From positions 1-33,024 of the forward strand of contig CAZYID010000007.1 of assembly GCA_964646595.1 (NCBI GenBank): a stretch of DNA of 33,024 bases. Direction: 5' to 3'. This DNA is from an uncultured Spirochaetales bacterium (GTDB lineage Bacteria > Spirochaetota > GWE2-31-10 > JAFGQB01). Within the stretch, counting starts at the first letter, position 1; every line of letters starts with the position of its first letter. A program made the translations under genes and the position numbers. The notes beneath the pieces were generated by a model, which was given only the letters and a program-made list of their open reading frames with translations, was not told the origin of the DNA and made no database searches. This document shows, piece after piece, positions 3-21,364 of the stretch.

Positions 3-1808
3 GAAAAAAAAGAAGTTGAAATAGCAAAAGCATATATTATTTATAGAGCAAAACACGATGTAATAAGAGACTCTAAAAAGTTATTTTTAGATATTAATTT
101 AACAATGGATGGCTATCTTAGCCAGTCTGATTGGCGTGTTAATGAAAATTCAAATGTAAATTTTTCTCTGGGTGGTTTAATTTTACATAACTCCGGAGCA
201 ATAACAGCAAATTATTGGCTGAAAAATATTTATCCGGAGGAAATTGCAAAAGCGCATAGAGAAGCTGATTTTCATATTCATGATCTTGGTATGTTTAGCG
301 GTTACTGTGCCGGCTGGTCTCTTCGCCAGCTTATTGAAGATGGACTTGGAGGAGTAAAAAATAAAATCAGTTCTAAACCGGCAAAACATCTTTATACTCT
401 TATTTTTCAAATTGTAAATTTTCTTGGTATTATGCAGAATGAATGGGCAGGCGCTCAAGCATTTTCAAGTTTTGATACTTACCTTGCACCTTTTGTCAGG
501 ATTGACAAGCTTAAATACAAAGAAGTAAAACAGGCTATTCAAAGTTTTGTGTTTGGAGTAAATACTCCATCAAGATGGGGGAGCCAGGCGCCTTTTACAA
601 ATATCACTCTTGATTGGACAGTTCCGGATGATTTGAAAAATAAACCTGCGATAGTTGGCGGTAAAGAATTAGATACAACTTATGGTGATTATCAAGAAGA
701 AATGAATATGATCAATAAAGCATTTATTGAGATAATGCTTGCCGGAGATGCAATGGGAAGAGGCTTTCAATATCCGATTCCAACTTATAATATTACAAAA
801 GATTTTCATTGGGATTCTGAAAATGCTAAGATGTTATTTGAAATGACTGCAAAATATGGCACTCCATATTTTCAGAATTTTATTAATAGTGATCTTAATC
901 CGGGTGATGTAAGATCAATGTGCTGCAGACTTCAATTGGATAAAAGAGAATTAAGAAAAAAAGGCGGCGGATTATTTGGGGCGGATGAATTAACAGGATC
1001 TATAGGTGTTGTTACTATAAATATGGCAAGAATTGGATATTTATCAAAAACGAAAGAAGAATTTTTTAGAAGATTAGATTTTATTATGAATTTAGCTGCA
1101 GAATCATTAATTATTAAAAGAAAAGTCGTTACTCGTCTTTTAGAAAATAATTTTTTTCCATATTCAAAGAAATATTTAGGACATTTTAATAATCATTTTT
1201 CTACTATTGGTATAAATGGAATGAATGAATGTCTTTTGAATTTTATGGGTAAAGATATTAGTGAAAAAGAAGGAATTGATTTTGCCTTAGAAGCTTTAGA
1301 ATACATGAGAAACAGGTTGGCAGATTATCAGGAAGAGACTGGAGATCTTTTTAATCTTGAAGCTACTCCGGCAGAAAGTACAAGCTATAGATTAGCAAAG
1401 CATGACAAGGAAAGATATCCTAATATTATTACCAGTGGAACAAAAGAACCATATTATACAAATTCTACTCAATTACCGGTAAATCATACTGATGATATTT
1501 TTGAAGCTCTTGATTTACAAGCTAAACTTCAGGCTACTTATACCGGAGGCACAGTATTTCATACTTTTATTGGGGAATCAATTACTGATTGGAAAGCTTG
1601 CAGGAATTTGGTGAAAACAATTGCAAGTAATTATAGAATACCTTATTTTACAATTTCACCAACTTTTTCTATTTGTCCGGTTCACGGTTATTTACAAGGG
1701 GAACAGTTTAATTGTCCAATTTGTGAAGAGGATGAAAAAAGAAAAATATATAAAGAAATTAAAAATTTAAAAGAAGAACGTAAGTCTTTAATTAAAAATT
1801 TAAAATAA
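3..1808 (+). CDS. nrdD: Anaerobic (class III) ribonucleoside-triphosphate reductase, large fragment. The 5' end runs off the window and the ORF lacks its own glycyl-radical domain
   Basis: The frame of ORF 105..1808 stays open back to nt 3 (EKKEVEIAKAYIIYRAKHDVIRDSKKLF). NrdD-like motifs: thiyl-loop region DVRSMCCRLQLD, FNLEATPAEST, YYTNSTQLPV, and a C-terminal Zn site CPVH-x9-CPIC. The ORF stops 27 aa after CPIC without any RVxGY glycyl-radical motif. Confidence 0.9.
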   Translation, partial: EKKEVEIAKAYIIYRAKHDVIRDSKKLFLDINLTMDGYLSQSDWRVNENSNVNFSLGGLILHNSGAITANYWLKNIYPEEIAKAHREADFHIHDLGMFSGYCAGWSLRQLIEDGLGGVKNKISSKPAKHLYTLIFQIVNFLGIMQNEWAGAQAFSSFDTYLAPFVRIDKLKYKEVKQAIQSFVFGVNTPSRWGSQAPFTNITLDWTVPDDLKNKPAIVGGKELDTTYGDYQEEMNMINKAFIEIMLAGDAMGRGFQYPIPTYNITKDFHWDSENAKMLFEMTAKYGTPYFQNFINSDLNPGDVRSMCCRLQLDKRELRKKGGGLFGADELTGSIGVVTINMARIGYLSKTKEEFFRRLDFIMNLAAESLIIKRKVVTRLLENNFFPYSKKYLGHFNNHFSTIGINGMNECLLNFMGKDISEKEGIDFALEALEYMRNRLADYQEETGDLFNLEATPAESTSYRLAKHDKERYPNIITSGTKEPYYTNSTQLPVNHTDDIFEALDLQAKLQATYTGGTVFHTFIGESITDWKACRNLVKTIASNYRIPYFTISPTFSICPVHGYLQGEQFNCPICEEDEKRKIYKEIKNLKEERKSLIKNLK

Positions 1809-1831
1809 ATCTTTGGGGAGGGAGAATAACT

Positions 1832-2392
1832 ATGCACACTATTGAGCAAATTGATCGAGAAATTTCAACACTTAATGATGAGTTACAAAAAGTAAAGGGT
1901 ACTGAAACAGAAGTTTATACAAGGATAGTCGGGTACCACAGAGCTGTTGACAACTGGAACAAAGGAAAAAGAGAAGAATATAATCATCGGAAAGAGTTTG
2001 TGGTAAATCAAGACAAACTATCTGAGGATATACTGGCTAAGAAGAATTATGAAGAAACAGAAGTTTCTGTTATTGATGAGAAAAAAGAAGAACAATGTCT
2101 AGGTATTAATGATTTAAACTTGGATAGAATTTCAGGGTTTAAATTATTTACCAGTCAATATTGTCATAATTGTAGTCCAGTTAAAAATTTTTTGAAAGAT
2201 CTTCATGTTAATGGCGAAGAAATTGATGTTAGTACGGATTTGGGAATAAACCTTGCAAAAAATTATGATGTGATGTCAACACCTACAGTTCTTCTATTTG
2301 ATGAAAATGATAACATAGTGTCAAAAGCATTCTCTGTTGATGAATTAAAAAAAGTTTTCTCAAAAAAAGAAAATTTGTTTTTAAGAAATTAA
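1832..2392 (+). CDS. NrdD C-terminal glycyl-radical domain fused to a thioredoxin/glutaredoxin-like CxxC domain
   Basis: A strong SD (GGGGAGGGAG, 1815..1824) lies 7 nt before the ATG. Residues 28-57 read EVYTRIVGYHRAVDNWNKGKREEYNHRKEF, the canonical NrdD glycyl-radical motif (Gly codon 1931..1933). The C-terminal ~85 aa read FKLFTSQYCHNCSPVKNFL...VMSTPTVLLFDEN, a thioredoxin fold with CHNC at 2162..2173. Confidence 0.8.
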   Translation: MHTIEQIDREISTLNDELQKVKGTETEVYTRIVGYHRAVDNWNKGKREEYNHRKEFVVNQDKLSEDILAKKNYEETEVSVIDEKKEEQCLGINDLNLDRISGFKLFTSQYCHNCSPVKNFLKDLHVNGEEIDVSTDLGINLAKNYDVMSTPTVLLFDENDNIVSKAFSVDELKKVFSKKENLFLRN

Positions 2393-2432
2393 TTAAAAAA
2401 GGCTTTAAATTGGTTCATTTGTAAAGAAACTG

Positions 2433-2483
2433 ATTGCAGAATTCTACTTTATATTAAAACATATGAGAGTAGAATTCTGCAAT
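2433..2483. repeat. Perfect 16-bp inverted repeat (stem-loop) between the radical-domain ORF and nrdG
   Basis: ATTGCAGAATTCTACT (2433..2448) and AGTAGAATTCTGCAAT (2468..2483) are exact reverse complements with a 19-nt spacer. No clear T-run follows. Confidence 0.7.
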
Positions 2484-2512
2484 ATCTTATTAAATTAAAT
2501 TAATTAAAGAAA

Positions 2513-3205
2513 ATGCAATTCTTTGGAATTCAAAAAAACACTCTTATTGATTACCCTGGTGAAGTAGCAGCAACTCTATTTACTTCCGGATGTAATTTTT
2601 TCTGCCCTTATTGTCATAATCCTGAACTAATAAATAAAAATGATAAAATTAAACCAATTGAATGGAAAGAAATATTTGAGTTTTTAAAAAAAAGAAAAAA
2701 TGTACTTGGCGGGATATGCATTACCGGAGGAGAGCCTTTACTTAATAAAGAAATTTCTAAGATAATTGATGAGATTCATTCTATTGGTTTAAAGGTAAAA
2801 ATTGACACTAATGGTTCTTTCCCTGATAGAATGATGAAATGCGATGCGGATTATATTGCAATGGATATTAAAACTTCTTTAGAAAAATATAAACTTGTTT
2901 GTTCTTTAGAAATAAATAAATTATCTCAGTTGCTGAAAGAATCAATAAATTTAATAATCAATTCAAATATTCCCCATGAATTTCGAACAACAGTTGCCCC
3001 GGAGATTGTTGAAGTTGATGATATAAGAAAAATAGCAAAATTAATAAAAGGTGCAGACAAATATGTTTTAGCTCAATTTCGACCAAAAAATACATTAAAT
3101 CCTGATTGGGAAAATATCCCTCCTTATTCAATTACTGTTTTGGAAGAAATGAAAAAAATAGTAGTTTCAACAGGAATAGAATGTGAAATAAGAGGTAAGC
3201 ATTAG
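2513..3205 (+). CDS. nrdG: Anaerobic ribonucleotide reductase activating protein (radical SAM)
   Basis: Radical-SAM cluster motif CNFFCPYCHN near the N-terminus, GGICITGGEPLL SAM-binding motif, ~230 aa, and a position directly downstream of nrdD. Confidence 0.85.
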   Translation: MQFFGIQKNTLIDYPGEVAATLFTSGCNFFCPYCHNPELINKNDKIKPIEWKEIFEFLKKRKNVLGGICITGGEPLLNKEISKIIDEIHSIGLKVKIDTNGSFPDRMMKCDADYIAMDIKTSLEKYKLVCSLEINKLSQLLKESINLIINSNIPHEFRTTVAPEIVEVDDIRKIAKLIKGADKYVLAQFRPKNTLNPDWENIPPYSITVLEEMKKIVVSTGIECEIRGKH

Positions 3206-3301
3206 TGATTAATTAAAAAAACAGGAAGATTGTTTCAATCATTTTGCTTTAAAAAAAAATGAAAATATGAAGCTGGGTATTTTTCTAAAAATGTAAAAAA
3301 A

Positions 3302-3330
3302 TTGACAAATTTTGATATATTTAATATAAT
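3302..3330 (+). promoter_or_regulatory. Sigma-70-type promoter (TTGACA-17 nt-TATAAT)
   Basis: Exact consensus -35 TTGACA (3302..3307), a 17-nt spacer and exact -10 TATAAT (3325..3330), ~50 nt upstream of the TTG start at 3382. The AT-rich background raises the chance-match rate. Confidence 0.5.
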
Positions 3331-3381
3331 CTTTATATGTTTTTGGGGTATTAATTATATTTACCGGGGGGGGATATAGTT

Positions 3382-4077
3382 TTGATTGATAAAGTAGATG
3401 CAGAAAACATAAATAAAATCCTACAAAAAGCTATCCTTCAATTTAACAGAAAAAACATAGATTCTTCCAAAGATTTATTTTTTAAAGTTCTTGAAAAAGA
3501 TCCTTCTAACCCTGAAGCAAATTATTATTTAGGCCTTGCATACTCAAAAGAACTAAACTGGAAAAAAGCTGTTGTTCATCTAAAAGCTGTTGTTGATATG
3601 AGTGTTAATTTCTTATATACTCAGCAGTGCAGGATGGTTTTAGGATATATTTATTTTAATAACAAAGAGTATAAAAGAGCTGAGATTGAATTTTTAGAGG
3701 TTTTAAAATCAAAAGTAAATATAGTACAAGTTTATGCAGCTTTAGCAGCAGTTAAGTATTACCTTGGAGAAAAAAAAGAAGCAATAAAATATGCAGAAAA
3801 AGCATGTGATGTTGATTCGTTTAATTTAAATGCAAAAAATACATTTGGTTATTTTTTGTGTGATTTTGAAGTTGATATTCCAAGAGGACTTGAAATGATT
3901 AGAGAAGTAGTCAGGATAAAACCTAATAATCCGGCTTATCTTGATTCACTAGGATGGGCATATTACAAAAAAGGTGATTTCAAAGCCGCAATTACAAGTT
4001 TAAAGAAAGCTATGGAATTCTCTGAAAATAATCCGGAAATTACTGAACATTATAAGTTTATTTATAAATCAAAGTAA
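3382..4077 (+). CDS. TPR-repeat protein
   Basis: Repeated TPR-like 34-aa units (e.g. PEANYYLGLAYSKELNWKKAVVHLKAV, PAYLDSLGWAYYKKGDFKAAITSLKKAMEF). TTG start preceded by a G-rich SD. Confidence 0.7.
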   Translation: MIDKVDAENINKILQKAILQFNRKNIDSSKDLFFKVLEKDPSNPEANYYLGLAYSKELNWKKAVVHLKAVVDMSVNFLYTQQCRMVLGYIYFNNKEYKRAEIEFLEVLKSKVNIVQVYAALAAVKYYLGEKKEAIKYAEKACDVDSFNLNAKNTFGYFLCDFEVDIPRGLEMIREVVRIKPNNPAYLDSLGWAYYKKGDFKAAITSLKKAMEFSENNPEITEHYKFIYKSK

Positions 4078-4088
4078 GGGGAAAAAGT

Positions 4089-6122
4089 TTGAGATTCATT
4101 TTTTTTGTTTCAATATATTTATTCTTGCTTAATTTCATTTTTTATACACAGGAAATTAATCTTTCTAAAGAGTATTCGATGGATGAATTTCAGGATGGAA
4201 TCAGAGCTTTTCATAGTACAGAATATGAACGTGCAATAACTTTTTTTTTAAAGTCTCTTAGTTTTGATGAAGAGAATCAACTTGCCAGGTATTTTTTAGG
4301 TGAAAGTTACAGAAAAGCCGGATATGATAAAAATGCTATTTTTGTATGGAATAATTTATTATCTTTAGGATACAGAGAAAGAAGTTTAAACGATAAAATA
4401 GAATATTTATATAATAAAAGAGGAATGCTTCATGAAATAAATATTAATAAAACCTTTGTTTTAAAAGAAGATATAAAAGGTTATTATCAAAGTACTGTTT
4501 CTCCATTATTTATAAAACCTTCGCAAATCTCAATTGATAAAAATAATCATTATTTTATTGCTTCATTTTTAACCGGATTGGTAGTTGAGTTGGATCCAAA
4601 TTTTAATTTAGTTAAAAACCATTTTCCATTATTAGAAAAAATAAAAAAACCATTTGGAGTTGTAGTAGATAATGAAGATTATTTATATGTTTCTGATTTT
4701 GAAAATAATACTGTTATAAAATTTGATAAGCATGGAGTAATAAAAACAAAAATTGGTTTTAAAGGGATAAATAAAGGAGCATTACTTGGTCCCGAATATT
4801 TATTGATAGATGATGAAGATAATTTGTATGTTGTTGATTCTGGGAATCATAGAATCAATAAATATAAAACAAATGGCGAAATCTTATTTTCTTTTGGTAA
4901 TGATAGTAATAGTGACGGAAAATTAATTAATCCAGCCGGAATGTATTATTTTGATAATAGTATTTATGTCTGTGATAAGGGTAATGACAGGGTAGTTGTT
5001 TTTGATAAAAGCGGGAATTATATTACTTCTTTTGGAGAAGGAAGACTTAAAAATCCGTATGATATAACTCGTGATAATTTTGATAGATTTTTAATATTAT
5101 GTGAAAAAGAAATCTGGGTTTATGAAGAAGAAAATTCACTTTGGTATATTTTAGATGCTGTTGGAAATCGACTGGAAAGAGGAACTTCTATTGTAATGGA
5201 TAAGGAAAATAACTTATTGGTAAGTGATTTTAATACTTCACGTTTGTTAGTTTTTTCCCATGAAAGGGAAAGATATACAAACCTTAATGTAAATATTGAA
5301 CGAGTTTTTTCACAAAATTTTCCTGAAGTCCACATATCTTTAACAGTTGAAAAAGATGATTTTACAATACCGTCAGGAGTAGATATACCTAATATAACAA
5401 TATTTGAAAATGGAAAAATTGTACCGCTAATTGGAAAAACATATACTCAGGAAAGAGATAAAAGAACAGATATAATGATAATTTATGATAATAATACAAA
5501 TATAGCTGCAAATAAAAATGATATTAAAATAATTATTGATAATTGGCTGCAAAATATTGATCCTATGACAAATGTTGGTTTTGTTGCATTTAAAGGCGGT
5601 GAAACTGTTTTAATGAATAACTTAGGTTCCCCAAGATTATCAATATTAGATTCAATTGATAATTGCAGTTATGAGAATAGGACAGATAAAGGAGCCGGAA
5701 TAAAGTTTAGTATTTACAATATGTTAAGAAAATTTTCAAAGAAAGCAATTATTCTGGTGACAAACTCTAAAGAAACAGGTGATGATTTTTTTAAATTTAA
5801 AATTGAAAATACAATTTCACTTGCGGTGAATAATAATATTCCGGTTTATGTTGTAGCTTTTAATGATAATGAACTTACTGAAATTTATCAGTATATTGCT
5901 GATAAAAGCAATGGTATGTATTATAGAGCATATCAAAGAGGTGATTTAAAGGATTTAATTAAAAATATAGAAAATTCAAAAGGAAAAGAATTAATTTTTT
6001 CCTATTCTTCAAAAGCAATTTCTAGATTTGGTGATGAACCTGTATCCGTAACTGTTGAAGTAAATTACGGAGGAATGAATGGAGTAGCAAAAACAATATA
6101 TTATCCAAATCGATACAAATAA
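4089..6122 (+). CDS. Secreted/membrane-anchored TPR - NHL-repeat - vWA-like protein
   Basis: N-terminal hydrophobic segment, then TPR-like units (YERAITFFLKSL, ARYFLGESYRKAGYDKNAIFVWNNLL). NHL-type repeats follow (YVSDFENNTVIKFD, YVVDSGNHRINKY, YVCDKGNDRVVVFD, LVSDFNTSRLLVF). The C-terminal alpha/beta region resembles vWA with a degenerate MIDAS (IMIIYDNNTN, AIILVTNSKETG, IPVYVVAFND). Confidence 0.65.
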   Translation: MRFIFFVSIYLFLLNFIFYTQEINLSKEYSMDEFQDGIRAFHSTEYERAITFFLKSLSFDEENQLARYFLGESYRKAGYDKNAIFVWNNLLSLGYRERSLNDKIEYLYNKRGMLHEININKTFVLKEDIKGYYQSTVSPLFIKPSQISIDKNNHYFIASFLTGLVVELDPNFNLVKNHFPLLEKIKKPFGVVVDNEDYLYVSDFENNTVIKFDKHGVIKTKIGFKGINKGALLGPEYLLIDDEDNLYVVDSGNHRINKYKTNGEILFSFGNDSNSDGKLINPAGMYYFDNSIYVCDKGNDRVVVFDKSGNYITSFGEGRLKNPYDITRDNFDRFLILCEKEIWVYEEENSLWYILDAVGNRLERGTSIVMDKENNLLVSDFNTSRLLVFSHERERYTNLNVNIERVFSQNFPEVHISLTVEKDDFTIPSGVDIPNITIFENGKIVPLIGKTYTQERDKRTDIMIIYDNNTNIAANKNDIKIIIDNWLQNIDPMTNVGFVAFKGGETVLMNNLGSPRLSILDSIDNCSYENRTDKGAGIKFSIYNMLRKFSKKAIILVTNSKETGDDFFKFKIENTISLAVNNNIPVYVVAFNDNELTEIYQYIADKSNGMYYRAYQRGDLKDLIKNIENSKGKELIFSYSSKAISRFGDEPVSVTVEVNYGGMNGVAKTIYYPNRYK

Positions 6123-6130
6123 ATAATAAA

Positions 6131-7516
6131 ATGAATAATAAATTAAAAACCTATCTAAATAAAATCAATAATAAGAATATATTAATTCAAGGTCTGGGAT
6201 TAAATGGCGGTGGATTAGGAACAGCGCTATTTTTTTTAGAAAATGGATTTGATGTCACAATAACTGATTTAAAAAATAAGAAAGAGTTAAATGAATCAGT
6301 AAGGACGCTCTGTCCCTATGAAAATAAAATTAAATATGTTTTAGGAGAACATAACGAAAAAGATTTTATTGAAGCAGATATAATTGTTAAAGGACCAGGA
6401 GTAGCCCCAACTAATAAATTTATCAAAATTGGAATAGAAAATGAGGCATATATCACAAGTGATCTGGAAATTTTTTTTGAAATAGCACCATGTGAAATTT
6501 ATGGAATAACAGGCAGCAAGGGTAAATCCACAACTGTTTCTGTTATTTATAATATATTTTTACAAGAAACTGATAATTCATATATGGGAGGCAATATTAC
6601 AATTTCTCCATTAACTTTTTATAAAAAGTTGAATAAAGAAAGTCTGATAATTCTAGAATTATCAAGCTGGCAGTTAAGGGATCTAAAAGGGAAAAATTTC
6701 CATTTAAAAGGCTGTTCAATAACAAATTTATTAAATGATCATCAAAATTATTATTCCTCCATGGATGATTATTTAAAAGACAAAATTATTATTACAGACA
6801 ACCAAAATAAGGATGATTTTTGTTTAATTCCTTATAAAGATAAATTTATAAATTTAAATTCAATAAATAGTAAAAGCAGATTATATACTTTTTCAAAATC
6901 AGATTTAAATTCAACCCTATTTTATGAAAATGGATGGGCGTGTTTTAAAGAAAATAATAAAATTATTAAGCTATATTCTATAAAAGATTTGATTGTACAG
7001 GGTGAACATGTACAACTTAATGTTCTTATTGCTTCAGGTTTCGCATACTTAGCCGGAATAAAGATTGAAAATATAATAAAAGGAATAAAAACCTATAAAG
7101 GTGCTCCTTACAGAATGGAATTAATTCGTATCTGGAATGGGATTAAATTTATTAATGATACAACAGCAACTATTCCTGATGCAGCATATTATGCAATTTT
7201 ATCATTTAAAGAACCATTAATATGGATTGGCGGAGGAAATGATAAAAATCTTGATTTTGAAATAATAAAAGATGTTTCAAATATTCCAAAAAAAATTTTT
7301 TTATTAAAAGGTGATGGAACTGAAAAGATGAAGGAATTTATTGATAGAAATGATATAATAGAATCAGATTCAATTGAATCTTTGATGGAACAAGCAGTTA
7401 AAAATGCTGTATCAGGGGATGTGATATTATTATCGCCGGGATGTACAAGTTTTGGATTATTTAAAAATGAGTTTCATAGAGGTGATGTTTTTAATAATTA
7501 TGTTAACTCCTTGTAA
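6131..7516 (+). CDS. murD: UDP-N-acetylmuramoyl-L-alanine--D-glutamate ligase
   Basis: N-terminal Rossmann-like ILIQGLGLNGGGLGTALFFLENGFDVTITD, Mur-ligase P-loop GITGSKGKSTT, C-terminal LSPGCTSFGLFKNEFHRGDVF, ~460 aa. Confidence 0.85.
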   Translation: MNNKLKTYLNKINNKNILIQGLGLNGGGLGTALFFLENGFDVTITDLKNKKELNESVRTLCPYENKIKYVLGEHNEKDFIEADIIVKGPGVAPTNKFIKIGIENEAYITSDLEIFFEIAPCEIYGITGSKGKSTTVSVIYNIFLQETDNSYMGGNITISPLTFYKKLNKESLIILELSSWQLRDLKGKNFHLKGCSITNLLNDHQNYYSSMDDYLKDKIIITDNQNKDDFCLIPYKDKFINLNSINSKSRLYTFSKSDLNSTLFYENGWACFKENNKIIKLYSIKDLIVQGEHVQLNVLIASGFAYLAGIKIENIIKGIKTYKGAPYRMELIRIWNGIKFINDTTATIPDAAYYAILSFKEPLIWIGGGNDKNLDFEIIKDVSNIPKKIFLLKGDGTEKMKEFIDRNDIIESDSIESLMEQAVKNAVSGDVILLSPGCTSFGLFKNEFHRGDVFNNYVNSL

Positions 7517-7560
7517 AATTATTTAAGTCTATAAAAGTAAAATTCCGATAAATTAAGACA

Positions 7561-9840
7561 ATGAAAAAATATAAGTTTTTTATTTTATTTATTATAATCT
7601 TATTCAATATTTTTTATATTTATCCCGAACTAAAATTTGATGTAATTGCATTGGATAGAGATAACGATTTTTTATTTAATTCAATTGAAATACTTGGCGG
7701 GAAAGAATATAACAGGACATTATTTTACGGGAATTTAAAAGAAAATATACTTAATTACAAATCAGTTACTTTTTATCCTGAAAATTTATATTATTCAGAA
7801 ACAGATAAACTATTATATATTTATAATAGGCTGGGTTTATATTCATATGATTTGAATAAAAAAGCAGTCACTGTTGTAGAGTCATTTCCAAATTATATTA
7901 ATAATAATGAATATACAATTTACGATTTGCCTAAAATTAATTTTTCATCTAATTTTCAATATTTATTAGGTAAAGTTCAAACATCTAATTCGAAATCAAG
8001 TATTTATCTTTATGATTTAAAAAATAATAAAGCAGAAGAAATAGTAAAAGATGTTGAAGTTAATCCGGGTAAAGATATTGCATTATGGTCGAATGATTCT
8101 AATTTTTTTATATATCAAAAAAATAACAATATTTATTATTTTTCAGTTATTGATTATAAAAGAGGTAAATTACTTGCAGAAGAGTGGAGGAAAATTGGAG
8201 ATGTAAAATTATCAAATGCTAAATGGACTTCTGATAATTTTTTAATTTGGGTTGAAAATAATATAATATATAAAGCGGATCCTAATCAGTTTTTTACCCG
8301 TTCAATTTATAAAAAATATCTTAAACAGGGTGATATTATTAAAAGAATTCCTTTTAAATTTAATCCTGCTTTTGATTCGCTAGAGATCAGTGATGAAGCA
8401 AGAAAAATTATTCTAATAAAAAATAATAACATGGTTTTTTATTTTTCTTTATTAAATGATTTAAATCATAATTTGTATTTGCATTTAAATGAAAATGAAA
8501 GATATGAAAAATGCAGGATATATAATAATGGTGAAGCAATTATAGTTGCTGATAAGCTTGATAAAGGCGAGATTAAAAAAGAAATAATTTTAATTAAAAA
8601 AGAAAATGGTGAATTTATTTTTAAAAGATTTAATGATAATGCTTTTAAAAATTTGAATATAAATAATATATATTTAAATGAAAAAAATTTTGAATTTGTT
8701 ATAAATACATCAAAAGGTTCATATTGTTATGATTTTAAAACCTTAAAACAATTATGGAAATATGAAGAACAAGAAGTAATTCATTCAATAAACACTGACT
8801 CAAATGAATGGATATTGGGCGGAAGATATACTACTGTTTTAGCTTTTCCGAACAAAAAAGTTTTTGATCCAATTTTTGCTAGTTCTTTTGAAAGTGCCGG
8901 TTTTTTTGATAATAATATTGGAGTAATTTGTAATAATAAAAATTTTGTAATTGATCATGATACAATGACTTTATCTAATTTAAAATCAAATGATTTTAAA
9001 TTGTATAATGATTTAAAAATTAATTATTCTAGAATTATAGTTAGAGATATAAATAAAGGTTTTTACAAACATGCTGTATATATAAAAGATCTTTATACAG
9101 GTAAATTATTATTAGTTACAGGGGATCCAAAATTAAAATATAATCTTTATCAGCCGGAAGTAATAATAGGGGCAAAGTATTATAATAATCCGTCTCCGGA
9201 GAAACATGAAATAGCGCTGGTATTTAATTGTGTAAAATCAGCTGAAGGTATATTTCCTATATTAACTAAGTTGAAACAATTTGATATTCCTTCAACATTT
9301 TTTATGAATGGAATGTTCATGGAATTAAATCCAGAAATTACTAAAGAGATTGTAGATTTTAAAATTGAGGTTGGTAATTTATTTCATTATTATATTAAAT
9401 TAACTGATAATAATTTTTTAATTGATAAAAATTTTATAAGACAGGGATTGGGTATAAATGAAGAGAGATTTTACAAAATAACAAGAAAAAATTTTATTCC
9501 GTTCTGGCATTCTCCAATGTATTCTTATAATGATACAATTATTAAATATGGAGAAGAAAGCGGTTATAAATTTGTAAGTTATAATTTAGACAGTTTGGAC
9601 TGGGTAGGTTCAAACAGTAATGATCTTACTTCCAGTTTATATATGTCTAATTCTCAATTGATTGAAAGAATATTAAAAAAAATTAAACCGGGTCAAATAA
9701 TAATATTCAGTACAGGTGTAAATGATTCTACAAGATCTGACTGGCTTTTTGATGATATTGATTTATTAATAAGTGAATTAATAAGAGCAGGCTATTCTTT
9801 TACTTCAGTTTCTGATTTATTGAAAAGATATAGAGAATAA
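7561..9840 (+). CDS. Large secreted protein with a C-terminal polysaccharide deacetylase (NodB-homology)-like domain
   Basis: Signal/anchor MKKYKFFILFIIILFNIF and a long repeat-poor N-terminal region of unknown fold. The C-terminal ~220 aa (IALVFNCVKSAEGIFPILTKLKQFDIPSTFFMNG ... WHSPMYSYN ... LDSLDW) resemble the NodB fold. The catalytic motifs look degenerate. Confidence 0.55.
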   Translation: MKKYKFFILFIIILFNIFYIYPELKFDVIALDRDNDFLFNSIEILGGKEYNRTLFYGNLKENILNYKSVTFYPENLYYSETDKLLYIYNRLGLYSYDLNKKAVTVVESFPNYINNNEYTIYDLPKINFSSNFQYLLGKVQTSNSKSSIYLYDLKNNKAEEIVKDVEVNPGKDIALWSNDSNFFIYQKNNNIYYFSVIDYKRGKLLAEEWRKIGDVKLSNAKWTSDNFLIWVENNIIYKADPNQFFTRSIYKKYLKQGDIIKRIPFKFNPAFDSLEISDEARKIILIKNNNMVFYFSLLNDLNHNLYLHLNENERYEKCRIYNNGEAIIVADKLDKGEIKKEIILIKKENGEFIFKRFNDNAFKNLNINNIYLNEKNFEFVINTSKGSYCYDFKTLKQLWKYEEQEVIHSINTDSNEWILGGRYTTVLAFPNKKVFDPIFASSFESAGFFDNNIGVICNNKNFVIDHDTMTLSNLKSNDFKLYNDLKINYSRIIVRDINKGFYKHAVYIKDLYTGKLLLVTGDPKLKYNLYQPEVIIGAKYYNNPSPEKHEIALVFNCVKSAEGIFPILTKLKQFDIPSTFFMNGMFMELNPEITKEIVDFKIEVGNLFHYYIKLTDNNFLIDKNFIRQGLGINEERFYKITRKNFIPFWHSPMYSYNDTIIKYGEESGYKFVSYNLDSLDWVGSNSNDLTSSLYMSNSQLIERILKKIKPGQIIIFSTGVNDSTRSDWLFDDIDLLISELIRAGYSFTSVSDLLKRYRE

Positions 9841-9860
9841 TAAAATTATTTTAATAATTA

Positions 9861-9987
9861 AAGCTCTGTCCCCCTATTAAAAATAATAATCATATTATAT
9901 TTAAAAAGATTTACAAAATCATATAAAAAGAAATATATATAGATTGCTTTGCTGCGCTCGCAAAGACGAAATAAACCTCTGTCCCCC
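9861..9987 (+). repeat. Intergenic repeat element, copy 1: GC-rich ATTGC...CTCGCAAAGACGAAATAA unit flanked by direct AAGCTCTGTCCCCC / ACCTCTGTCCCCC motifs
   Basis: AAGCTCTGTCCCCC (9861..9874) and ACCTCTGTCCCCC (9975..9987) bracket AGATTGCTTTGCTGCGCTCGCAAAGACGAAATAA (9941..9974). That unit closely matches 30614..30647. An internal 6-bp hairpin is CTTTGC/GCAAAG. Confidence 0.75.
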
Positions 9988-10156
9988 ATTTTTATTAATC
10001 AAAATTAATAAATGGGTAATTTTTACACAATAATTACTGTTATTATTAAAAGTGTATAAAAAATATCCAGTTTATATTTTATTAATTTTATTTATTGTTT
10101 TTATCAAAAACCTGTAATTTATTGATATAAAAGTAATTAGTAGGTTTTTATTTATA

Positions 10157-10172
10157 TGGCATGATTATTGCT
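10157..10172 (+). promoter_or_regulatory. Sigma-54 (-24/-12) promoter upstream of grpE-dnaK-dnaJ
   Basis: TGGCATGATTATTGCT matches TGGCACG-N4-TTGCW at every core position but one, with exact GG-N10-GC spacing. It lies 59 nt upstream of the grpE ATG in an otherwise GC-poor spacer. Confidence 0.55.
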
Positions 10173-10230
10173 AAGAAATTATTAGCTGATATTAAAGAGA
10201 TTTAAAATAAATATTAAAGGGTGTTTTAGA

Positions 10231-10950
10231 ATGGAAGATAAAGAAAAAAATAATATTAATGATCAAGATTTGAGTACAAAAGATATTAATGATAAAGATA
10301 ATAGTAAAATTCATGAAAATAAAGAAAAAATGAATATAAAAGATGACAAAGAAAGTAAAAATAAAGAAAGCAAGAAAGATAAAAAAAATCTTGATGCAGT
10401 GATGGAAAAATTAAAGAAATGTGAAAATGAAGAATTAATTAAGATGTATGTTAAAACAATAAAAGAACTTGAAAAAACAAAGAAAGTTTTAACAGAAAAA
10501 GAAAATGAAGCTAAAGATATGCTTGATAAATATAGACGAACTTTAGCAGAAATGGAAAATGTTAGAAAAAGAATTTTAATAGAAAAACAGGATTCATTAA
10601 AATATGCAAATTTTAATATTATAAGTGACTTGCTTGTACTTTTAGATGATTTTGAAAGAGCAATAAATTCGGCTAAAAATAATAATGAAAGCACAGATTT
10701 AAGTCATTTTGTTGAAGGTATTGATATGATAGAAAAGCAGTTTGCAGATTTATTATTTAAAAAATATGGTGTTGTTAAATATTGTGAAGTTAATGAAGAA
10801 TTTGATCCAAAAGTACATTCAGCAATGACATTGGAAGAAGGTGATTTTAAAGATGAAATTGTATTAGAAATTTATAGAAAGGGCTATATGCTGCATGATA
10901 GAGTTATAAGAGCAGCTGAAGTAAAAGTGGGTAAACCTAAGGAAAATTAA
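10231..10950 (+). CDS. grpE: Nucleotide exchange factor GrpE, with a K/D/E/N-rich N-terminal extension
   Basis: GrpE core motifs YRRTLAEMENVRKR, DLLVLLDDFERA, FDPKVHSAM, YMLHDRVIRAAEVKV. Position is upstream of dnaK. The true start could be an internal Met, because the N-terminus is low complexity. Confidence 0.9.
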   Translation: MEDKEKNNINDQDLSTKDINDKDNSKIHENKEKMNIKDDKESKNKESKKDKKNLDAVMEKLKKCENEELIKMYVKTIKELEKTKKVLTEKENEAKDMLDKYRRTLAEMENVRKRILIEKQDSLKYANFNIISDLLVLLDDFERAINSAKNNNESTDLSHFVEGIDMIEKQFADLLFKKYGVVKYCEVNEEFDPKVHSAMTLEEGDFKDEIVLEIYRKGYMLHDRVIRAAEVKVGKPKEN

Positions 10951-11037
10951 ATTTGTTCTTTTAAATAATAGAAAAAATATTTTTTAAAGAATATTAACTG
11001 TTTGTTTATATTCTTTATATTGAAATTTAACTTATAA

Positions 11038-13005
<1,968 letters not shown>

Positions 13006-13072
13006 TAAAGAAGTTTGTAGAATAATATAGTTTTAAATTATTTTACAGTTTTTTATATGTACATATTTATTT

Positions 13073-13110
13073 AATAAGTGCAGGATCAATAATAAAGTCT
13101 TGCACTTATT
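13073..13110 (+). terminator. Stem-loop between dnaK and dnaJ (possible partial terminator or mRNA-stabilising hairpin)
   Basis: AATAAGTGCAGGA (13073..13085) pairs with TCTTGCACTTATT (13098..13110), 13 bp including one G-U. No strong T-run immediately follows. Confidence 0.4.
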
Positions 13111-13158
13111 ATTGATTAATTGTGTTTTTAAAAGAAAAATTTATGGAGAATAATAAAA

Positions 13159-14334
13159 ATGGCTCGTAAAGATCCTTATGAAATACTTGGAGTTGGTAAA
13201 AGCGCTTCAACTGATGAAATAAAAAAAGCATATCGTAAGCTTGCTATGAAACATCATCCGGATAGAAATCCTGGAGACAAAACAGCGGAAGAAAAATTTA
13301 AAGAGGCAACAGATGCTTATACTATATTAGGAGACGCTGAGAAAAGAAAGAGATTTGATCAATACGGATATGCTGGTGTTGAAGGTATGTTTACCGGAGC
13401 TGGAGGGGGAAATCCATTTAGCGGTGGTTCAGGTATTTTTGATGGATTTGAAGATATATTTGGCGGCTTTGAAGATATATTCAGTTCTTTTTTCGGAGGC
13501 GGATTTAGAAGTTCTTCTGGAAGAAGAGCCGCAAGACGAGGTCATGATTTATTGTACAGTGTAGAAATTTCTTTGGAAGATACTGTTAAAAATAAAAGTA
13601 TTGACATAGCTTATGAAAAACTTGTGACTTGTGATACTTGCCGTGGTTCAGGTTCAAGTTCCGGTACTGGTACCGGTAAAAGAAGCTGTCCTAACTGCGG
13701 AGGAGCCGGACAGGTTAGACATAGTCAGGGTTTCTTTTCTATTGCAACTCCATGCCCTAGATGTAATGGAGCAGGTGAAGTTATTGAAAATCCCTGTAAA
13801 GCATGCAATGGAAAGGGTGTAAATCAAAAAAGAGTATCCAAAAATATTAAAATCCCATTGGGTATAGATAATGGGAAAAAAATTATTTTAAGAGGAGAAG
13901 GAGACGCTGGAGAAAATGGCGCTTCTCCCGGGGATTTACATATAAAGTTTAGTGTAAAACAGCATCCTCATTTTTTAAGGGACGGTAATGATTTAATTGT
14001 AGAAGTTCCAATAAGTTTTACTCAAGCAGTATTAGGTGATGATATTAATATTGATACAATTGATAATAAAACAATAAAACTTAAAGTTCCCTCCGGATGT
14101 GAAAATGGAAAGATTTTAAGGATTAAGGAAGCAGGTATTCCTTTTTTAAATAATCCGGGAAGAAAAGGGGATTTATATATTAAAGTTTATATAGAAGTTC
14201 CAAAATCTTTAAATAGAAATGAAAAAAATTTATTAGAACAGTATAGAAGTTTAAGAGGAGAAAACAAGAAGCCTTCTCCTACAAAAATAAGTAATCGAAG
14301 CAGATTAAATGATTTTTTTGATCATTTTAGATAG
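13159..14334 (+). CDS. dnaJ: Co-chaperone DnaJ (Hsp40, type I)
   Basis: J-domain with HPD ([10 protein letters not shown]), a G/F-rich linker, and four CxxCxGxG zinc-finger repeats ([32 protein letters not shown]). Confidence 0.97.
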
Positions 14335-14358
14335 AATGATTATTAAGTAAAAGTTATT

Positions 14359-14387
14359 AACACGGATTTTATGTCTGTGTTTTTTTT
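14359..14387 (+). terminator. Rho-independent terminator after dnaJ
   Basis: AACACGGA / TCTGTGTT form an 8-bp stem (one G-U) with a 7-nt loop, running into a T8 tract (14380..14387). Confidence 0.5.
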
Positions 14388-14425
14388 AAAAAAATATTAC
14401 AAAATAAATATTTCTAAAAAATTTA

Positions 14426-14454
14426 TTGGAAAAATTATAGAATTTTTATAAAAT
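14426..14454 (+). promoter_or_regulatory. Candidate sigma-70 promoter (TTGGAA-17-TAAAAT)
   Basis: -35-like TTGGAA (14426..14431), a 17-nt spacer and -10-like TAAAAT (14449..14454), 34 nt upstream of the GTG start at 14488. Low specificity in AT-rich DNA. Confidence 0.3.
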
Positions 14455-14487
14455 GTATTTATAAATGATATTTTAGGAGGAATATTT

Positions 14488-15120
14488 GTGGCCAAAACAA
14501 AAAGATCGAATTTTTTAATAGATAAACCATTTCAGTTAGGCTTTATTTTTAGATATCTTGTTATAATTATTTTAACAATAATTTTAGTTTTAGCTTTAAT
14601 AGCAGCTTATTATTGGTTTGTATCAAATTATGGTGAATTTAAATTAAATTCATCAATAACATATACAACGCGGGGATATATTAAATCTAAAGGAAAGCAA
14701 GTATATAATTTTGATGCTGAGGAAATTCAAGTTATTGAAGATATGGATGAAAATGGAAATATTATATATAAATGCCATAATTCATTTAAATCAAAAAAAT
14801 ATACAGAAGGAGATATTGTAGAAAATGTATCAAAAAATGACCTTAAGCCTTATATTGGTTCAATTAATAAAACAACAACAAGATTTAAGATAATTTTATT
14901 TCCACTTGTATTAACCGGAGTTATTCTTATACTTATTATTTCAATTTATTCATTATTCTTTTCTCATCGAATGGCTGGGCCAATTTATAGAATGAGAGTT
15001 TCACTTGATAGAATTCTTCAAGGTGATAGTGATTTTAAAATAAAGGTTAGAAAGAGTGATTTTTATGTTAACGTCATTGAAAAACTTGAAAAATTACGAC
15101 AGCAAGTAGCCAGGAAATAA
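14488..15120 (+). CDS. Small two-TM membrane protein with a C-terminal HAMP-like helix region
   Basis: GTG start 7 nt after AGGAGG. Two hydrophobic helices (aa ~20-45 and ~125-150) flank an ~80-aa extracytoplasmic loop. After TM2, MAGPIYRMRVSLDRILQGDSDFKIKV resembles HAMP AS1. Confidence 0.6.
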   Translation: MAKTKRSNFLIDKPFQLGFIFRYLVIIILTIILVLALIAAYYWFVSNYGEFKLNSSITYTTRGYIKSKGKQVYNFDAEEIQVIEDMDENGNIIYKCHNSFKSKKYTEGDIVENVSKNDLKPYIGSINKTTTRFKIILFPLVLTGVILILIISIYSLFFSHRMAGPIYRMRVSLDRILQGDSDFKIKVRKSDFYVNVIEKLEKLRQQVARK

Positions 15121-15134
15121 TTTATATAAATAAT

Positions 15135-15171
15135 AAATACCTTTCAGGTTTTTAAAACCTGAAAGGTATTT
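15135..15171. terminator. Bidirectional intrinsic terminator between convergent genes
   Basis: AAATACCTTTCAGGTTTT and AAAACCTGAAAGGTATTT are perfect 18-nt complements, with T/A runs on both sides. Confidence 0.7.
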
Positions 15172-15183
15172 ATTTAAATAATA

Positions 15184-16248
15184 TTATTCAATATGAATTA
15201 ATTCATAATCAATATCACCAACTCCAATTTTTTTTGCATATTCAAACTGGACATTAGAATTTATCTGTGGATAAACATCAAGAAATGGATCTTTCTTGGC
15301 TTGCTTTATAACAAGGTCAAAACTTGCTTTATCAATAGCTATTGGATCAGTACTTGAAAGAAAACCTATATCCTCTGTAACCGGTTTATCATTACCTCCA
15401 TAACAATCACATGCTGGGCTTATGGAAGTTAAGATATTAATAAATAAAATCTTAGATTTAAATTTTTTAGTTACTGTATTTGCATATTCAATCATTTTTT
15501 TTTGAGTTGTCTCTGAACTTTCATTCCATAATGATTCTATTGCTCCTTCTGGACAAACAGAAATACACCGTGCACAACCTACGCATTTATCTGTAATTAC
15601 TGCTTTTTTTTTGATTATAATAGCTTTTACCTGGCAATTTTTTATACATAATCCACAAGCAGTACATTTACTTTGTTTAACAACAGGTTTATTTTGGGAG
15701 TGCATATCAAGTTTTCCACTTCGACTTGCACATCCCATAGATAGATTCTTAATTGCCCCACCAAATCCAGACACTTCATGCCCTTTAAAATGAGAGATTA
15801 CAATCATTCCATCAGCATTATAAATGTCACTGGCAATTTTTACTTTTTTTAATACTTTAGATTCTATTTTTAACTCTTTTGTATTTTCTCCTCTTAATCC
15901 ATCAGCTATTATTATAGGTATCTGTAGAGTAGAATAATTAAATCCATTTAATGTAGCATTATAAAGGTGATCTACACTATTTGATCTCATCCCTATATAT
16001 AGTGTATTGGTATCTGTTAAAAATGGATTTGTTTTAATTTTTTTTAATACTTCAATTACTGGCCGTAATAAAATCGGCCTAGTAAACGAAGTATTTCCTA
16101 ATTCACCAAAATGTAATTTAATTGCAATAAGTTCTTTTTTATTAAACATTTTTTCAATATTACACTGCTCCATTAAACGTTTTATTTTATTTAATGGAGT
16201 TTTAAATTTTGGATTATCAATAGGTGAAAAATAAACTTTTGCAGACAT
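15184..16248 (-). CDS. DUF362 domain protein with an inserted 2x[4Fe-4S] ferredoxin-type motif
   Basis: The N-terminus (VYFSPI...LIAIKLHFGELGN...RP) is typical of DUF362. Two ferredoxin cluster motifs are present: CTACGLCIKNC and CVGCARCISVCPEGAI. Confidence 0.75.
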   Translation of the reverse strand: MSAKVYFSPIDNPKFKTPLNKIKRLMEQCNIEKMFNKKELIAIKLHFGELGNTSFTRPILLRPVIEVLKKIKTNPFLTDTNTLYIGMRSNSVDHLYNATLNGFNYSTLQIPIIIADGLRGENTKELKIESKVLKKVKIASDIYNADGMIVISHFKGHEVSGFGGAIKNLSMGCASRSGKLDMHSQNKPVVKQSKCTACGLCIKNCQVKAIIIKKKAVITDKCVGCARCISVCPEGAIESLWNESSETTQKKMIEYANTVTKKFKSKILFINILTSISPACDCYGGNDKPVTEDIGFLSSTDPIAIDKASFDLVIKQAKKDPFLDVYPQINSNVQFEYAKKIGVGDIDYELIHIE

Positions 16249-16268
16249 GTTTTTAACTCCTATTTTAA

Positions 16269-16685
16269 TTATTCGCCAATGATTTTAACAAGTACTCTTT
16301 TTTTTCTCTTACCATCAAATTCACCATAGAATATCTGTTCCCATGGACCAAAATCAAGTTTACCATTTGATACTGCAACTACAACTTCACGGCCCATTAT
16401 TGTTCTTTTTAAATGAGCATCAGCATTGTCTTCAAAACCATTGTGCTTATATCGTGAATAAGGTTTTTCAGGAGCAAGCCCTTCAAGCCAAACTTCAAAG
16501 TCCTGATGCAAACCTGATTCATCATCATTTATAAAAACACTTGCAGTTATATGCATTGCATTGCATAAAAGTAATCCTTCTTTAATCCCGCTTTCATCAA
16601 CACATTGCTGAACATGATGAGTAATGTTAATTAATTCACGCCTTTTTTTTATATCAAACCAGAGTTCTTTTCTAAAATGCTTCAT
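16269..16685 (-). CDS. YjbQ/UPF0047 family protein (secondary thiamine-phosphate synthase-like)
   Basis: [77 protein letters not shown]. The longest ORF extends to 16748. The Met at 16685 ([10 protein letters not shown]) has a GGAG SD 8-9 nt upstream and gives the family-typical ~139 aa. Confidence 0.8.
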
Positions 16686-16836
16686 TTTTTTGCTCCAATT
16701 ATAATTATAAATAATATTTTTTTTATCTATGATAGATGGATGAGACATTCGTCTCTTTTGTAATTATTTATGTTTATAAAATAAATAAAAATTTATATTT
16801 ATGCAAGATAAGTATTAAAAAAAGTAAGAAATATTT

Positions 16837-16847
16837 AGCTCTGTCCC
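16837..16847 (+). repeat. Solo copy of the dispersed intergenic motif AGCTCTGTCCC
   Basis: Exact AGCTCTGTCCC in the divergent spacer between the yjbQ-like gene and the Cys-rich ORF. The same 11-mer occurs at 9862..9872 and, reverse-complemented, at 20339..20349. Confidence 0.7.
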
Positions 16848-16933
16848 TCAAAGAAATCATAATTAGTATATTTGAAATATTTTAAAAAATATGTTAAAAA
16901 TAATGTAAAATAATTATTATTAAGGAAACTGTT

Positions 16934-17050
16934 ATGGCAAAAAAAAACAACTGCCCTTGCAGTTCAACATATTGTTCCAGACATGGAAATTGTGACACCT
17001 GTCAAGAATATCATCATTCCTATGGTCAAAGAACAAGCTGTGGTAAATAA
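16934..17050 (+). CDS. Small (38 aa) Cys/His-rich protein, probable metal-binding mini-protein; absent from the supplied ORF track
   Basis: ATG at 16934 lies 6-7 nt after AAGGAA. Translation: MAKKNNCPCSSTYCSRHGNCDTCQEYHHSYGQRTSCGK, stop at 17048..17050. It has 6 Cys and 3 His in 38 aa and ends 29 nt before pdxB on the same strand. Confidence 0.55.
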   Translation: MAKKNNCPCSSTYCSRHGNCDTCQEYHHSYGQRTSCGK

Positions 17051-17079
17051 AATTTATTTAATATTATAGGCATTTATTC

Positions 17080-18210: not shown

Positions 18211-18217
18211 GTGATGT

Positions 18218-18400
18218 TTAACCCGCATTTCTCACAAGCCCTTGGTTTGAAAGTTGTATCTTTTGCCCTGATAAGTATTTACTTCTGCACTTGATTCTCA
18301 CATAGTGTAACTATGCTGCGAGTCTCGTTTAGTCGTAAATCCTTATCAGAACAGAATCTACGACGTTTCAATCTAGTGGTTTGTGAGAAAAGCTGGTTAA
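18218..18400 (+). repeat. 183-nt near-palindromic repeat element, copy A (candidate structured RNA or MITE-like element)
   Basis: 171/183 identical to 32790..32972 in the same orientation. It folds end to end into one long imperfect hairpin: terminal arms TTAACCCGCATTTCTCACAAGCC / GGTTTGTGAGAAAAGCTGGTTAA, an inner stem CTGATAAGTATTTAC / GTAAATCCTTATCAG, and an apical stem CATAGT-GTA-ACTATG. TTAA at both termini. GC content is clearly above that of the flanks. Confidence 0.85.
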
Positions 18401-19038: not shown

Positions 19039-19172
19039 ATTAATAATTCCAAAAGGTATTTATTAAACTAAATATAATCTTTTTTAGAATAATTATATAT
19101 TTTAAAAAAGTCAAATATTTTATGTTTTTTTTAAAAATAATTTATAAAAAAAATTGTCATAAATTAAATTTC

Positions 19173-19201
19173 TTGATTATTTACAGTTATTAAAATAAAA
19201 T
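19173..19201 (+). promoter_or_regulatory. Candidate sigma-70 promoter (TTGATT-17-TAAAAT)
   Basis: TTGATT (19173..19178), a 17-nt spacer and TAAAAT (19196..19201), 42 nt upstream of the ATG at 19244. Low specificity in AT-rich DNA. Confidence 0.3.
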
Positions 19202-19243
19202 TATTTATAAAATTAGTTCTCTTTTAATTATCGGGAGTTTAAT

Positions 19244-21363: not shown

Positions 21364-21364
21364 A

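Follow-up and report, generated by a model that had tools for sequence, protein, structure and literature searches.

Can a ribonucleotide reductase (RNR) work when its glycyl radical lies on a different polypeptide from its catalytic barrel? The question is raised by the beginning of a 33,024-nucleotide (nt) stretch of DNA from an uncultured Spirochaetales bacterium (GenBank assembly GCA_964646595.1, contig CAZYID010000007.1, positions 1 to 33,024 of the forward strand; this whole stretch is called the window below). There, the gene for the class III RNR NrdD stops short of the glycyl-radical motif, which is encoded by a second open reading frame (ORF) fused to a thioredoxin-like (redoxin) domain. 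An earlier reading of the sequence alone (the original prediction) had pointed out this arrangement, and we followed it up computationally. Our results suggest that the locus likely encodes a heteromeric class III RNR, in which an ancestral single NrdD chain is divided between the zinc (Zn) ribbon and the glycyl-radical loop, docking helices join the two parts and the tethered redoxin serves as reductant. Two conserved genes jointly hold every element of an NrdD2-type enzyme together with a redoxin, heptad-patterned helices lie at the break, and the activase gene is adjacent. The parts of the locus, all on the + strand, are as follows.

3..1808, + strand: nrdD large subunit (ORF1), with catalytic barrel and Zn site; its 5' end is cut by the window start.
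918..932, + strand: finger-loop motif M-C-C-R-L, holding the thiyl-radical Cys and an adjacent Cys, by direct reading.
1674..1724, + strand: Zn-ribbon CPVH-x9-CPIC (Cys558, His561, Cys571 and Cys574 in window-ORF numbering).
1725..1805, + strand: large-subunit tail helix of 27 amino acids (aa), EEDEKRKIYKEIKNLKEERKSLIKNLK, a proposed docking helix.
1815..1824, + strand: Shine-Dalgarno-like GGGGAGGGAG, 7 nt 5' of the ORF2 ATG at 1832, by direct reading.
1832..2392, + strand: nrdD small subunit (ORF2), 186 aa, with head helix, glycyl-radical loop, linker and thioredoxin-fold domain.
1841..1897, + strand: small-subunit head helix, residues 4–22, IEQIDREISTLNDELQKVK, the proposed partner of the tail.
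1898..1999, + strand: glycyl-radical segment GTETEVYTRIVGYHRAVDNWNKGKREEYNHRKEF, matching Pfam NRDD positions 532–562 of 562.
2000..2131, + strand: variable linker of ~44 aa, without conserved columns.
2132..2365, + strand: thioredoxin-fold domain (PF00462), with CHNC at 2162–2173 and the cis-Pro motif TPT at 2279–2287.
2513..3205, + strand: nrdG (ORF3), radical S-adenosylmethionine (SAM) activase of the TIGR02495 NrdG2 type.

Re-reading the DNA confirmed the layout that had been described. ORF1 comprises 601 open codons from base 3 and stops at TAA 1806–1808, 27 residues after CPVH-x9-CPIC; about 100 N-terminal residues, including the ATP-cone found in its ~700-aa homologues, are absent from the window. 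The two ORFs are separated by 23 nt (1809–1831), and ORF2 starts in a different frame with its own Shine-Dalgarno site. It carries the radical motif EVYTRIVGY, in which codon 1931–1933 specifies the radical Gly34, followed by the linker, CHNC and TPT. The thiyl loop likewise reads MCCRL.

Profile searches placed both pieces in one enzyme. ORF1 matched positions 1–534 of the 562-position Pfam NRDD model (E = 8e-181), and ORF2 matched positions 532–562 of the same model (E = 2.8e-7, 30.0 bits; gathering score 26.2). A single NrdD profile is split cleanly between the two ORFs, and the domain calls are far above chance. ORF2 also scored with Glutaredoxin PF00462 (25.9 bits; gathering score 22.9), so that the original prediction of both a glycyl-radical and a thioredoxin-fold match in this ORF held. 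ORF1 additionally matched positions 72–662 of the 684 in NCBIfam PRK08270 (1043 bits; cut-off 548), and ORF3 matched TIGR02495 NrdG2 (E = 3e-56, 190 bits; cut-off 131). The features by which a class III RNR is recognized are therefore distributed over three genes: ORF1 has the barrel with the finger-loop Cys and, in sequence, a C-terminal Zn ribbon with predicted metal binding; RxxGY is absent from the barrel polypeptide and stands on the separate gene ORF2; and ORF3 supplies the cognate NrdG. MCCRL and the four Zn-ribbon residues are invariant in 18 of 18 aligned large subunits, the ribbon aligns with the C-terminal metal site of Thermotoga maritima NrdD, and 17 residues of the glycyl-radical segment are invariant among 30 homologues. 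Consistently, in an AlphaFold2 (AF2) model of an artificial ORF1+ORF2 fusion (64-row block alignment; mean predicted local distance difference test score (pLDDT) 74, predicted template-modelling score (pTM) 0.70), the NrdD part matched solved NrdD structures with template-modelling (TM) scores of 0.6–0.75 in Foldseek.

The split recurs across genomes. A database search returned 806 ORF2 homologues at E ≤ 1e-3; the best 120 are stand-alone proteins of 131–246 aa, ranging from 100% down to 38% identity, and the named organisms among them are Spirochaetes/Spirochaetota. HMMER against 1.84 billion cluster representatives at 50% identity gave 265 clusters at E ≤ 1e-10 for ORF2, and none of the best 150 exceeds 320 aa. 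Scanning one genome per species revealed a relative in at least 569 species genomes. Nearly all of the best 80 are Spirochaetota, the exceptions being two Marinamargulisbacteria metagenome-assembled genomes (MAGs) and one probably mis-binned 'Collinsella' contig; isolates with relatives include Treponema berlinense ATCC BAA-909 and T. socranskii ATCC 35535 and 35536. The radical motif occupies its own reading frame in 86 of 86 loci. From the other side of the break, 119 of the 120 closest ORF1 homologues (76–94% identical, ~700 aa) have no radical loop and finish with the same type of tail. The survey of relatives suggested in the original prediction thus supports the split.

Gene order is similarly maintained. 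Two of the three diverged relatives viewed have the order nrdR, large, small, nrdG, with large nrdD genes of 699–701 aa (ATP-cone plus NRDD); the third (P0050) has nrdR, large (705 aa) and small, without an adjacent nrdG. Where nrdG directly follows the small-subunit gene in relatives, a 4-nt overlap was found in the three operons checked. In two gene products (P0245 and P0225) the small subunit, comprising radical loop and redoxin, reads straight into NrdG-like radical-SAM sequence; they represent either genuine small-subunit::activase fusions or artefacts of gene calling or frameshifts.

These data bear on two trivial explanations. An assembly or sequencing error, or a recent pseudogene in place of an uninterrupted nrdD, might be suspected because the window comes from one single contig, yet hundreds of independent assemblies, isolate genomes among them, show the same split, with variable gaps and in three frames, and both pieces are under purifying selection; the probability of such an error is next to nil. 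Recoding by programmed frameshifting or bypassing, or trans-splicing by a split intein, could in principle restore a single NrdD chain, as the genes are adjacent and the junction falls in a highly conserved region, the usual seat of inteins and introns. Against this, 70 non-redundant pairs have gaps of −4 to 346 nt between the genes, the relative frames 0, 1 and 2 are represented 19, 29 and 28 times in 76 pairs, and the small genes have their own start codons, which is incompatible with a fixed recoding signal. Intein halves would also have to fit into a tail and a head that are far too short for them (medians of 27 and 25 aa), there is no Cys or Ser after CxxC, where K/R-A-E stands, and an invariant Gly occupies the place where Asn is needed before Thr. 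We consider restoration of one chain by either route extremely improbable. The cross-genome recurrence, the variable gaps and the use of all three frames exclude assembly error, pseudogenization, programmed frameshifting and bypassing, and the split is genuine and ancient.

How might the two chains find each other? The original prediction had called the end of ORF1 and the start of ORF2 heptad-like helices unusual for NrdD, and they proved to be conserved in the 70 pairs and absent from unsplit relatives. In close unsplit relatives (P0257, P0266–P0270 and P0288) the sequence runs CPxCG-x3-EVYSRIVGY, with only ~4 residues between the last Zn Cys and the radical segment, whereas the split enzymes have ~50 extra residues at the break. 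The tail measures 23–33 aa and the head 23–36 aa. Counted from CxxC, the tail is hydrophobic at +8, +12 and +15 in 100% of the pairs and at +22 in 79%, and has R/K at +19 in 97%. Counted from the invariant Gly23, the head is hydrophobic at −19, −16, −12, −5 and −2 in 94–100%, more weakly at −9 (61%), and acidic at −13 and −15 in more than 90%. Because the point where the tail begins must lie beside the point where the head ends, as in the unsplit chain, any pairing of the helices must be antiparallel, and an antiparallel register does bring the hydrophobic positions together (+8/−9, +12/−12, +15/−16, +19/−19). The AF2 fusion has helices at 572–599 (tail) and 602–621 (head) with pLDDT values of 78–88, those of the head helix being 80–84. 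On the strength of helicity and heptads, tail and head probably form an antiparallel docking coiled coil.

Uninterrupted NrdD-redoxin chains with an in-frame remnant of tail and head were observed in three proteins from Treponema sp. MAGs (P0273, P0275 and P0276). The remnant reads CPxCAAEERRKMEQ[K/R]GEKI...ILGTRTEVY, with most of both helices gone, and looks like the result of a secondary re-fusion of the two genes. The loss indicates that the helices are dispensable in a covalent chain, which is what one expects if they hold two chains together.

We then asked to which NrdD subclass the active site belongs. Alignment with T. maritima NrdD identified the beta-A Cys in GYCAGW as the equivalent of C125, the double Cys in MCCR, and the Glu of FNLEATPAE as the equivalent of E495. 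The NrdD2 subtype is defined by a third Cys beside the thiyl Cys and an active-site Glu, and is associated with reduction of the thioredoxin type (Wei et al. 2014, summarised in PMC4493059). Since the C125, CC and E495 equivalents are all present, the active site of the large subunit is of the NrdD2, thioredoxin-compatible type. Single-chain NrdD2 enzymes, such as T. maritima NrdD (PDB 4COI/4U3E) and Neisseria bacilliformis NrdD, share with the spirochaete pair the barrel, two-Cys finger loop, beta-A Cys, active-site Glu, C-terminal metal ribbon, RxxGY motif and NrdG activase. The spirochaete enzyme differs from them in having the radical loop on a second polypeptide, ~50 helical extra residues at the break and a redoxin on the radical chain.

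The redoxin domain itself has the features of a thioredoxin fold. AF2 modelling gave it pLDDT values of 88–96 (92–96 in the ORF1+ORF2 fusion) and the secondary-structure order E-H-E-H-E-E-H (beta-alpha-beta-alpha-beta-beta-alpha), CxxC opening helix 1 and a loop carrying the cis-Pro, and its Foldseek matches are thioredoxins (TM 0.55–0.7). The nearest solved proteins by profile belong to the small thioredoxins and glutaredoxin-like proteins, namely Bacillus cereus BC3987 (3zij; 33% identity), a Pyrococcus protein disulfide oxidoreductase and Methanocaldococcus jannaschii MJ0307. Among 30 aligned small subunits, C111, C114, P116 and the cis-Pro P151 never vary; all 70 non-redundant small subunits have CxxC (CPNC in 56), and 69 of them have xPT. 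The distance from RIVGY to CxxC ranges from 37 to 84 residues in 70 homologues, and the AF2 linker has pLDDT values below 50. The domain does not correspond to NrdH, whose signature is C-V/M-Q-C plus WSGFRP: ORF2 has CHNC, and no NrdH model is among the listed NCBIfam matches.

The original prediction had described the split and the redoxin fusion together. The split is real and conserved, but the fusion does not belong to it, as redoxins also occur on uninterrupted NrdDs. When an unsplit fragment served as the seed, the search returned many sequences with NRDD plus Glutaredoxin or Thioredoxin Pfam domains, the named ones coming from Lachnospiraceae, Oscillospiraceae and other Clostridia; L142 (802 aa) and P0439 are full-length examples. 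These unsplit Clostridia-type proteins have the same order of Zn ribbon, radical loop, linker and CxxC domain, and the closest share CPNCPPV; they differ in being one chain in which CPxCG-x3-EVY is joined directly, without tail or head helices. In a rough tree unsplit NrdD-redoxin fusions form the sister group of the split clade, so the redoxin fusion is either older than the split or independent of it. Redoxin domains are also missing from some split small subunits, and the fusion is not specific to the split. Two metagenome contigs (L087 329..3459 and L088) encode a large NrdD of 708 aa with the tail helix, an 83-aa small subunit and then nrdG. A human faecal contig (L142, GenBank MT835493.1) encodes an ATP-cone-NrdD-linker-redoxin protein at 1042..3450 and a thioredoxin-disulfide-reductase-like gene at 3454..4362. 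The latter lies 4 nt after the fusion and matches TIGR01292 (E = 1e-88) with 297 bits, below the curated cut-off of 343 bits; no such neighbour was seen at three other unsplit fusion loci.

Taken together, these data suggest how the heteromeric enzyme would operate. The large subunit (~700 aa) would contribute the ATP-cone, the ten-stranded barrel, the MCCR finger loop, the Zn ribbon and the 27-residue amphipathic end helix, and the small subunit a complementary amphipathic helix, the Gly34 radical loop, a flexible tether of ~44 residues and the CxxC domain. Pairing of tail and head in an antiparallel two-helix coiled coil would bring the radical loop into the barrel beside Cys307/Cys308. The loop would be placed there much as by the covalent chain, given that its flanks, CPxC and G-x-E-x-E-V-Y, are only ~4 residues apart in unsplit relatives. 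NrdG, judging from its family, would abstract the C-alpha hydrogen of Gly34. Each turnover would oxidize the pair formed by the beta-A Cys and a finger-loop Cys, as in NrdD2 enzymes, and the tethered CxxC domain, present at high local concentration, would re-reduce this pair and be recycled by thioredoxin reductase. The suggestion in the original prediction that the redoxin supplies reducing equivalents fits MCCR, the beta-A Cys, the E495-equivalent Glu and the many unsplit fusions, and a protein disulfide reductant is plausible for the spirochaete split NrdD.

Several observations weigh against this scheme. The Gly loop has low confidence in the AF2 model (pLDDT 46–51), which was built on an artificial fusion. 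Mutual information between tail and head columns of the 70 pairs yielded several column pairs above a shuffle control, mostly compatible with the antiparallel register, but the control ignores phylogeny, and the covariation, confounded in this way, is suggestive at best. The finger loop keeps its Met, and enzymes with the double-Cys motif and Met appear equipped for formate or thioredoxin, so that the reductant, or an alternative one, could be formate (Burnim and Ando, PMC9669993). The small subunits of L087 and L088 consist of head and radical loop without redoxin, which indicates that the redoxin domain is not essential to a split enzyme. Finally, no thioredoxin reductase gene was found near the operon in the spirochaete loci examined or in the window, where the search covered 20 ORFs of at least 120 aa and left out six ORFs in 3382..33024.

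The last three observations also speak for a redoxin that is not the turnover reductant, with formate reducing the substrate and the domain protecting or repairing the Zn-site or finger-loop Cys, sensing redox state or providing a partner site for NrdG. We consider such a role unlikely, as CxxC and cis-Pro show almost no variation, the domain is linked to the very segment that plugs the active site, and one unsplit fusion is followed by the reductase-like gene described above. Moreover, glutaredoxin fusions to RNR subunits work as RNR reductants, as in Facklamia ignava, where a glutaredoxin fused to NrdB serves as its reductant (PMC6187632). That protein resembles the spirochaete one in having a redoxin covalently tethered to an RNR component; its fusion is N-terminal, on a class I radical-generating subunit, and glutathione-dependent, whereas the spirochaete domain is C-terminal to a class III radical loop and is like the small thioredoxins BC3987 and MJ0307.

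Is the small protein a subunit or a spare part? The original prediction had drawn an analogy with GrcA, and stand-alone proteins with a glycyl-radical motif are indeed known: GrcA/YfiD from Escherichia coli and phage T4 Y06I are autonomous glycyl radical cofactors for pyruvate formate-lyase (PFL), activated by the enzyme's own activase, and spares for other glycyl radical enzymes have been speculated (PMC8683613). As in the spirochaete pair, a small separate protein bears the radical Gly and has to place it in the barrel of another chain. GrcA, however, is a spare that acts after oxygen cleavage of an enzyme with a radical domain of its own, whereas the spirochaete small protein is the sole radical domain of its enzyme. 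It belongs to the NrdD rather than the PFL sequence family, with no match of ORF2 to the PFL-type Gly_radical domain at E ≤ 0.1 in the Pfam search, and it differs from GrcA in its dedicated docking helix and redoxin. The comparison is therefore apt for a radical loop supplied in trans and fails as a claim of membership, the partner being without a radical domain and the family being NrdD. It is also very improbable that the small protein serves solely to rescue a full-length NrdD from another gene after oxygen cleavage: the adjacent large subunit lacks the loop in 119 of 120 relatives, the small gene adjoins the large one and lies between it and nrdG in two of the three relatives viewed, and in the only MAG with two small-subunit genes both belong to full large/small pairs. 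As the large subunit lacks a radical loop, the small protein would be an obligate subunit and not a back-up.

Why the chain was divided is a separate question. The break may have been neutral, a gene left in pieces by an insertion (for example, a mobile element since lost), with helices that compensate for it and neither advantage nor exchange. The ~50 extra residues and the variable intergenic DNA exactly at the break would suit such an origin. In a neighbour-joining tree of 133 conserved columns, two small unsplit groups fall among the split sequences; close unsplit relatives are about as similar to split ones (74–78%) as split ones are among themselves (77%), and at least one lineage has re-fused. 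There is also a precedent in Pseudomonas aeruginosa NrdJa/NrdJb, in which, as in the spirochaete pair, an RNR catalytic subunit comes from two adjacent genes, though in another RNR class and with another break point. This enzyme is reportedly of class II, with a C-terminal functional module on the second protein, and the detached part is said to carry reducing cysteines and not the radical site. It is a split but functional RNR (Crona et al. 2015, cited in PMC9669993). On the other side stand the persistence of the split across a large, old clade, the strong conservation of the helices, and phage proteins with a head helix that hint at use of the module in trans (see below). We regard a neutral origin as quite possible, if short of probable; it addresses why the split exists and not how the enzyme functions, and is compatible with the heteromeric, redoxin-linked enzyme that we favour.

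A scan of IMG/VR viral contigs revealed ~45 tiny stand-alone ORFs with an NrdD radical segment, 43–100 codons between stops (loci L089–L097, L100, L101 and L104–L140, the match lying at ~3001–3180 of each locus). Those of L089–L092, L095 and L097 have a head-like helix that shares its heptad with the spirochaete small subunit, and those of L101 and L105–L131 start M-x-K-C-G, as if from the second CxxC of the Zn ribbon; L105:2989-3150 matched Pfam NRDD positions 526–562 (E = 2e-10). Neither an NrdD core nor NrdG was found within 3 kb of these ORFs, whose neighbours are typical phage genes of replication, recombination and nucleotide metabolism. A search of GenBank phages returned unsplit NrdDs only. 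Spare parts have been validated for PFL only and speculated for other glycyl radical enzymes (Andorfer et al., PMC8683613), and the phage mini-proteins are candidate 'spare-part' radical proteins for class III RNR.

The original prediction had also proposed that the radical-bearing piece may be an exchangeable cartridge. In such a scheme, NrdG may load the radical onto the small subunit separately, the coiled coil may plug reversibly, and the 20-kDa piece alone may be replaced after oxygen cleavage at Gly34, with phages exploiting the same socket. The head-bearing phage mini-proteins are the sole support for exchangeability and are circumstantial, and we regard the proposal as tentative and somewhat doubtful. 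If true, this would give ribonucleotide reductase its first 'spare-part' glycyl radical proteins.

Class III RNRs, the redoxin fusion and split RNRs as an idea are already known; what is new is where the chain breaks, the dedicated helices proposed for docking and how broad the clade is. The literature searched, which may be incomplete but took in recent phylogenies of RNRs and a review of glycyl radical enzymes from 2026, contained no description of a class III RNR with its radical domain on a separate polypeptide. One RNR survey kept only sequences of 400–1100 residues (PMC9531940); such length-filtered surveys miss the two-protein arrangement, and annotation pipelines label the small protein 'hypothetical'. 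The same literature mentions a single case of fused grx::nrdD, that of Lachnospiraceae bacterium TWA4 (PMC6187632); redoxins on NrdD are far commoner than the one case noted.

The split enzyme offers a natural tool for asking how the activase reaches a Gly buried in the barrel and how the radical domain enters and leaves it. A radical domain that is detached by nature in a working enzyme would permit experiments that single-chain enzymes make difficult, such as activation in trans, subunit titration, isotope labelling of one piece and exchange after oxygen damage. The physiological reductant of double-Cys NrdDs is uncertain, and the tethered redoxin points to a built-in disulfide relay. The hosts include oral and gut Treponema, and the subunit interface of the essential enzyme might for this reason offer a selective target.

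One further element lies within the operon, in the 120-nt spacer between ORF2 and nrdG.

2433..2483, + strand: near-perfect RNA hairpin of 22 bp.

The surrounding region (2385–2515) has a minimum free energy of −30.2 kcal/mol (z = −5.2). No T-run follows the stem on its 3' side and no terminator was called; without a T-run the hairpin is not a canonical terminator, and it may be a processing or stability element.

Two Clostridia-type nrdD-redoxin genes were called as two pieces with the break in mid-barrel (L143 2441..5389 and L144 2638..5068). The pieces of L143 are separated by 486 nt, which could hold an intervening element. In L144 the calls overlap and neighbouring genes are also fragmented, which looks like a noisy assembly.

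The remainder of the window (3382..33024) is ordinary chromosomal context, with genes for a TPR protein, an NHL/VWA protein, a MurD-like ligase, a polysaccharide deacetylase, grpE-dnaK-dnaJ, a DUF362 Fe-S protein, a PAS histidine kinase with a sigma-54 response regulator, and a methyl-accepting chemotaxis protein.

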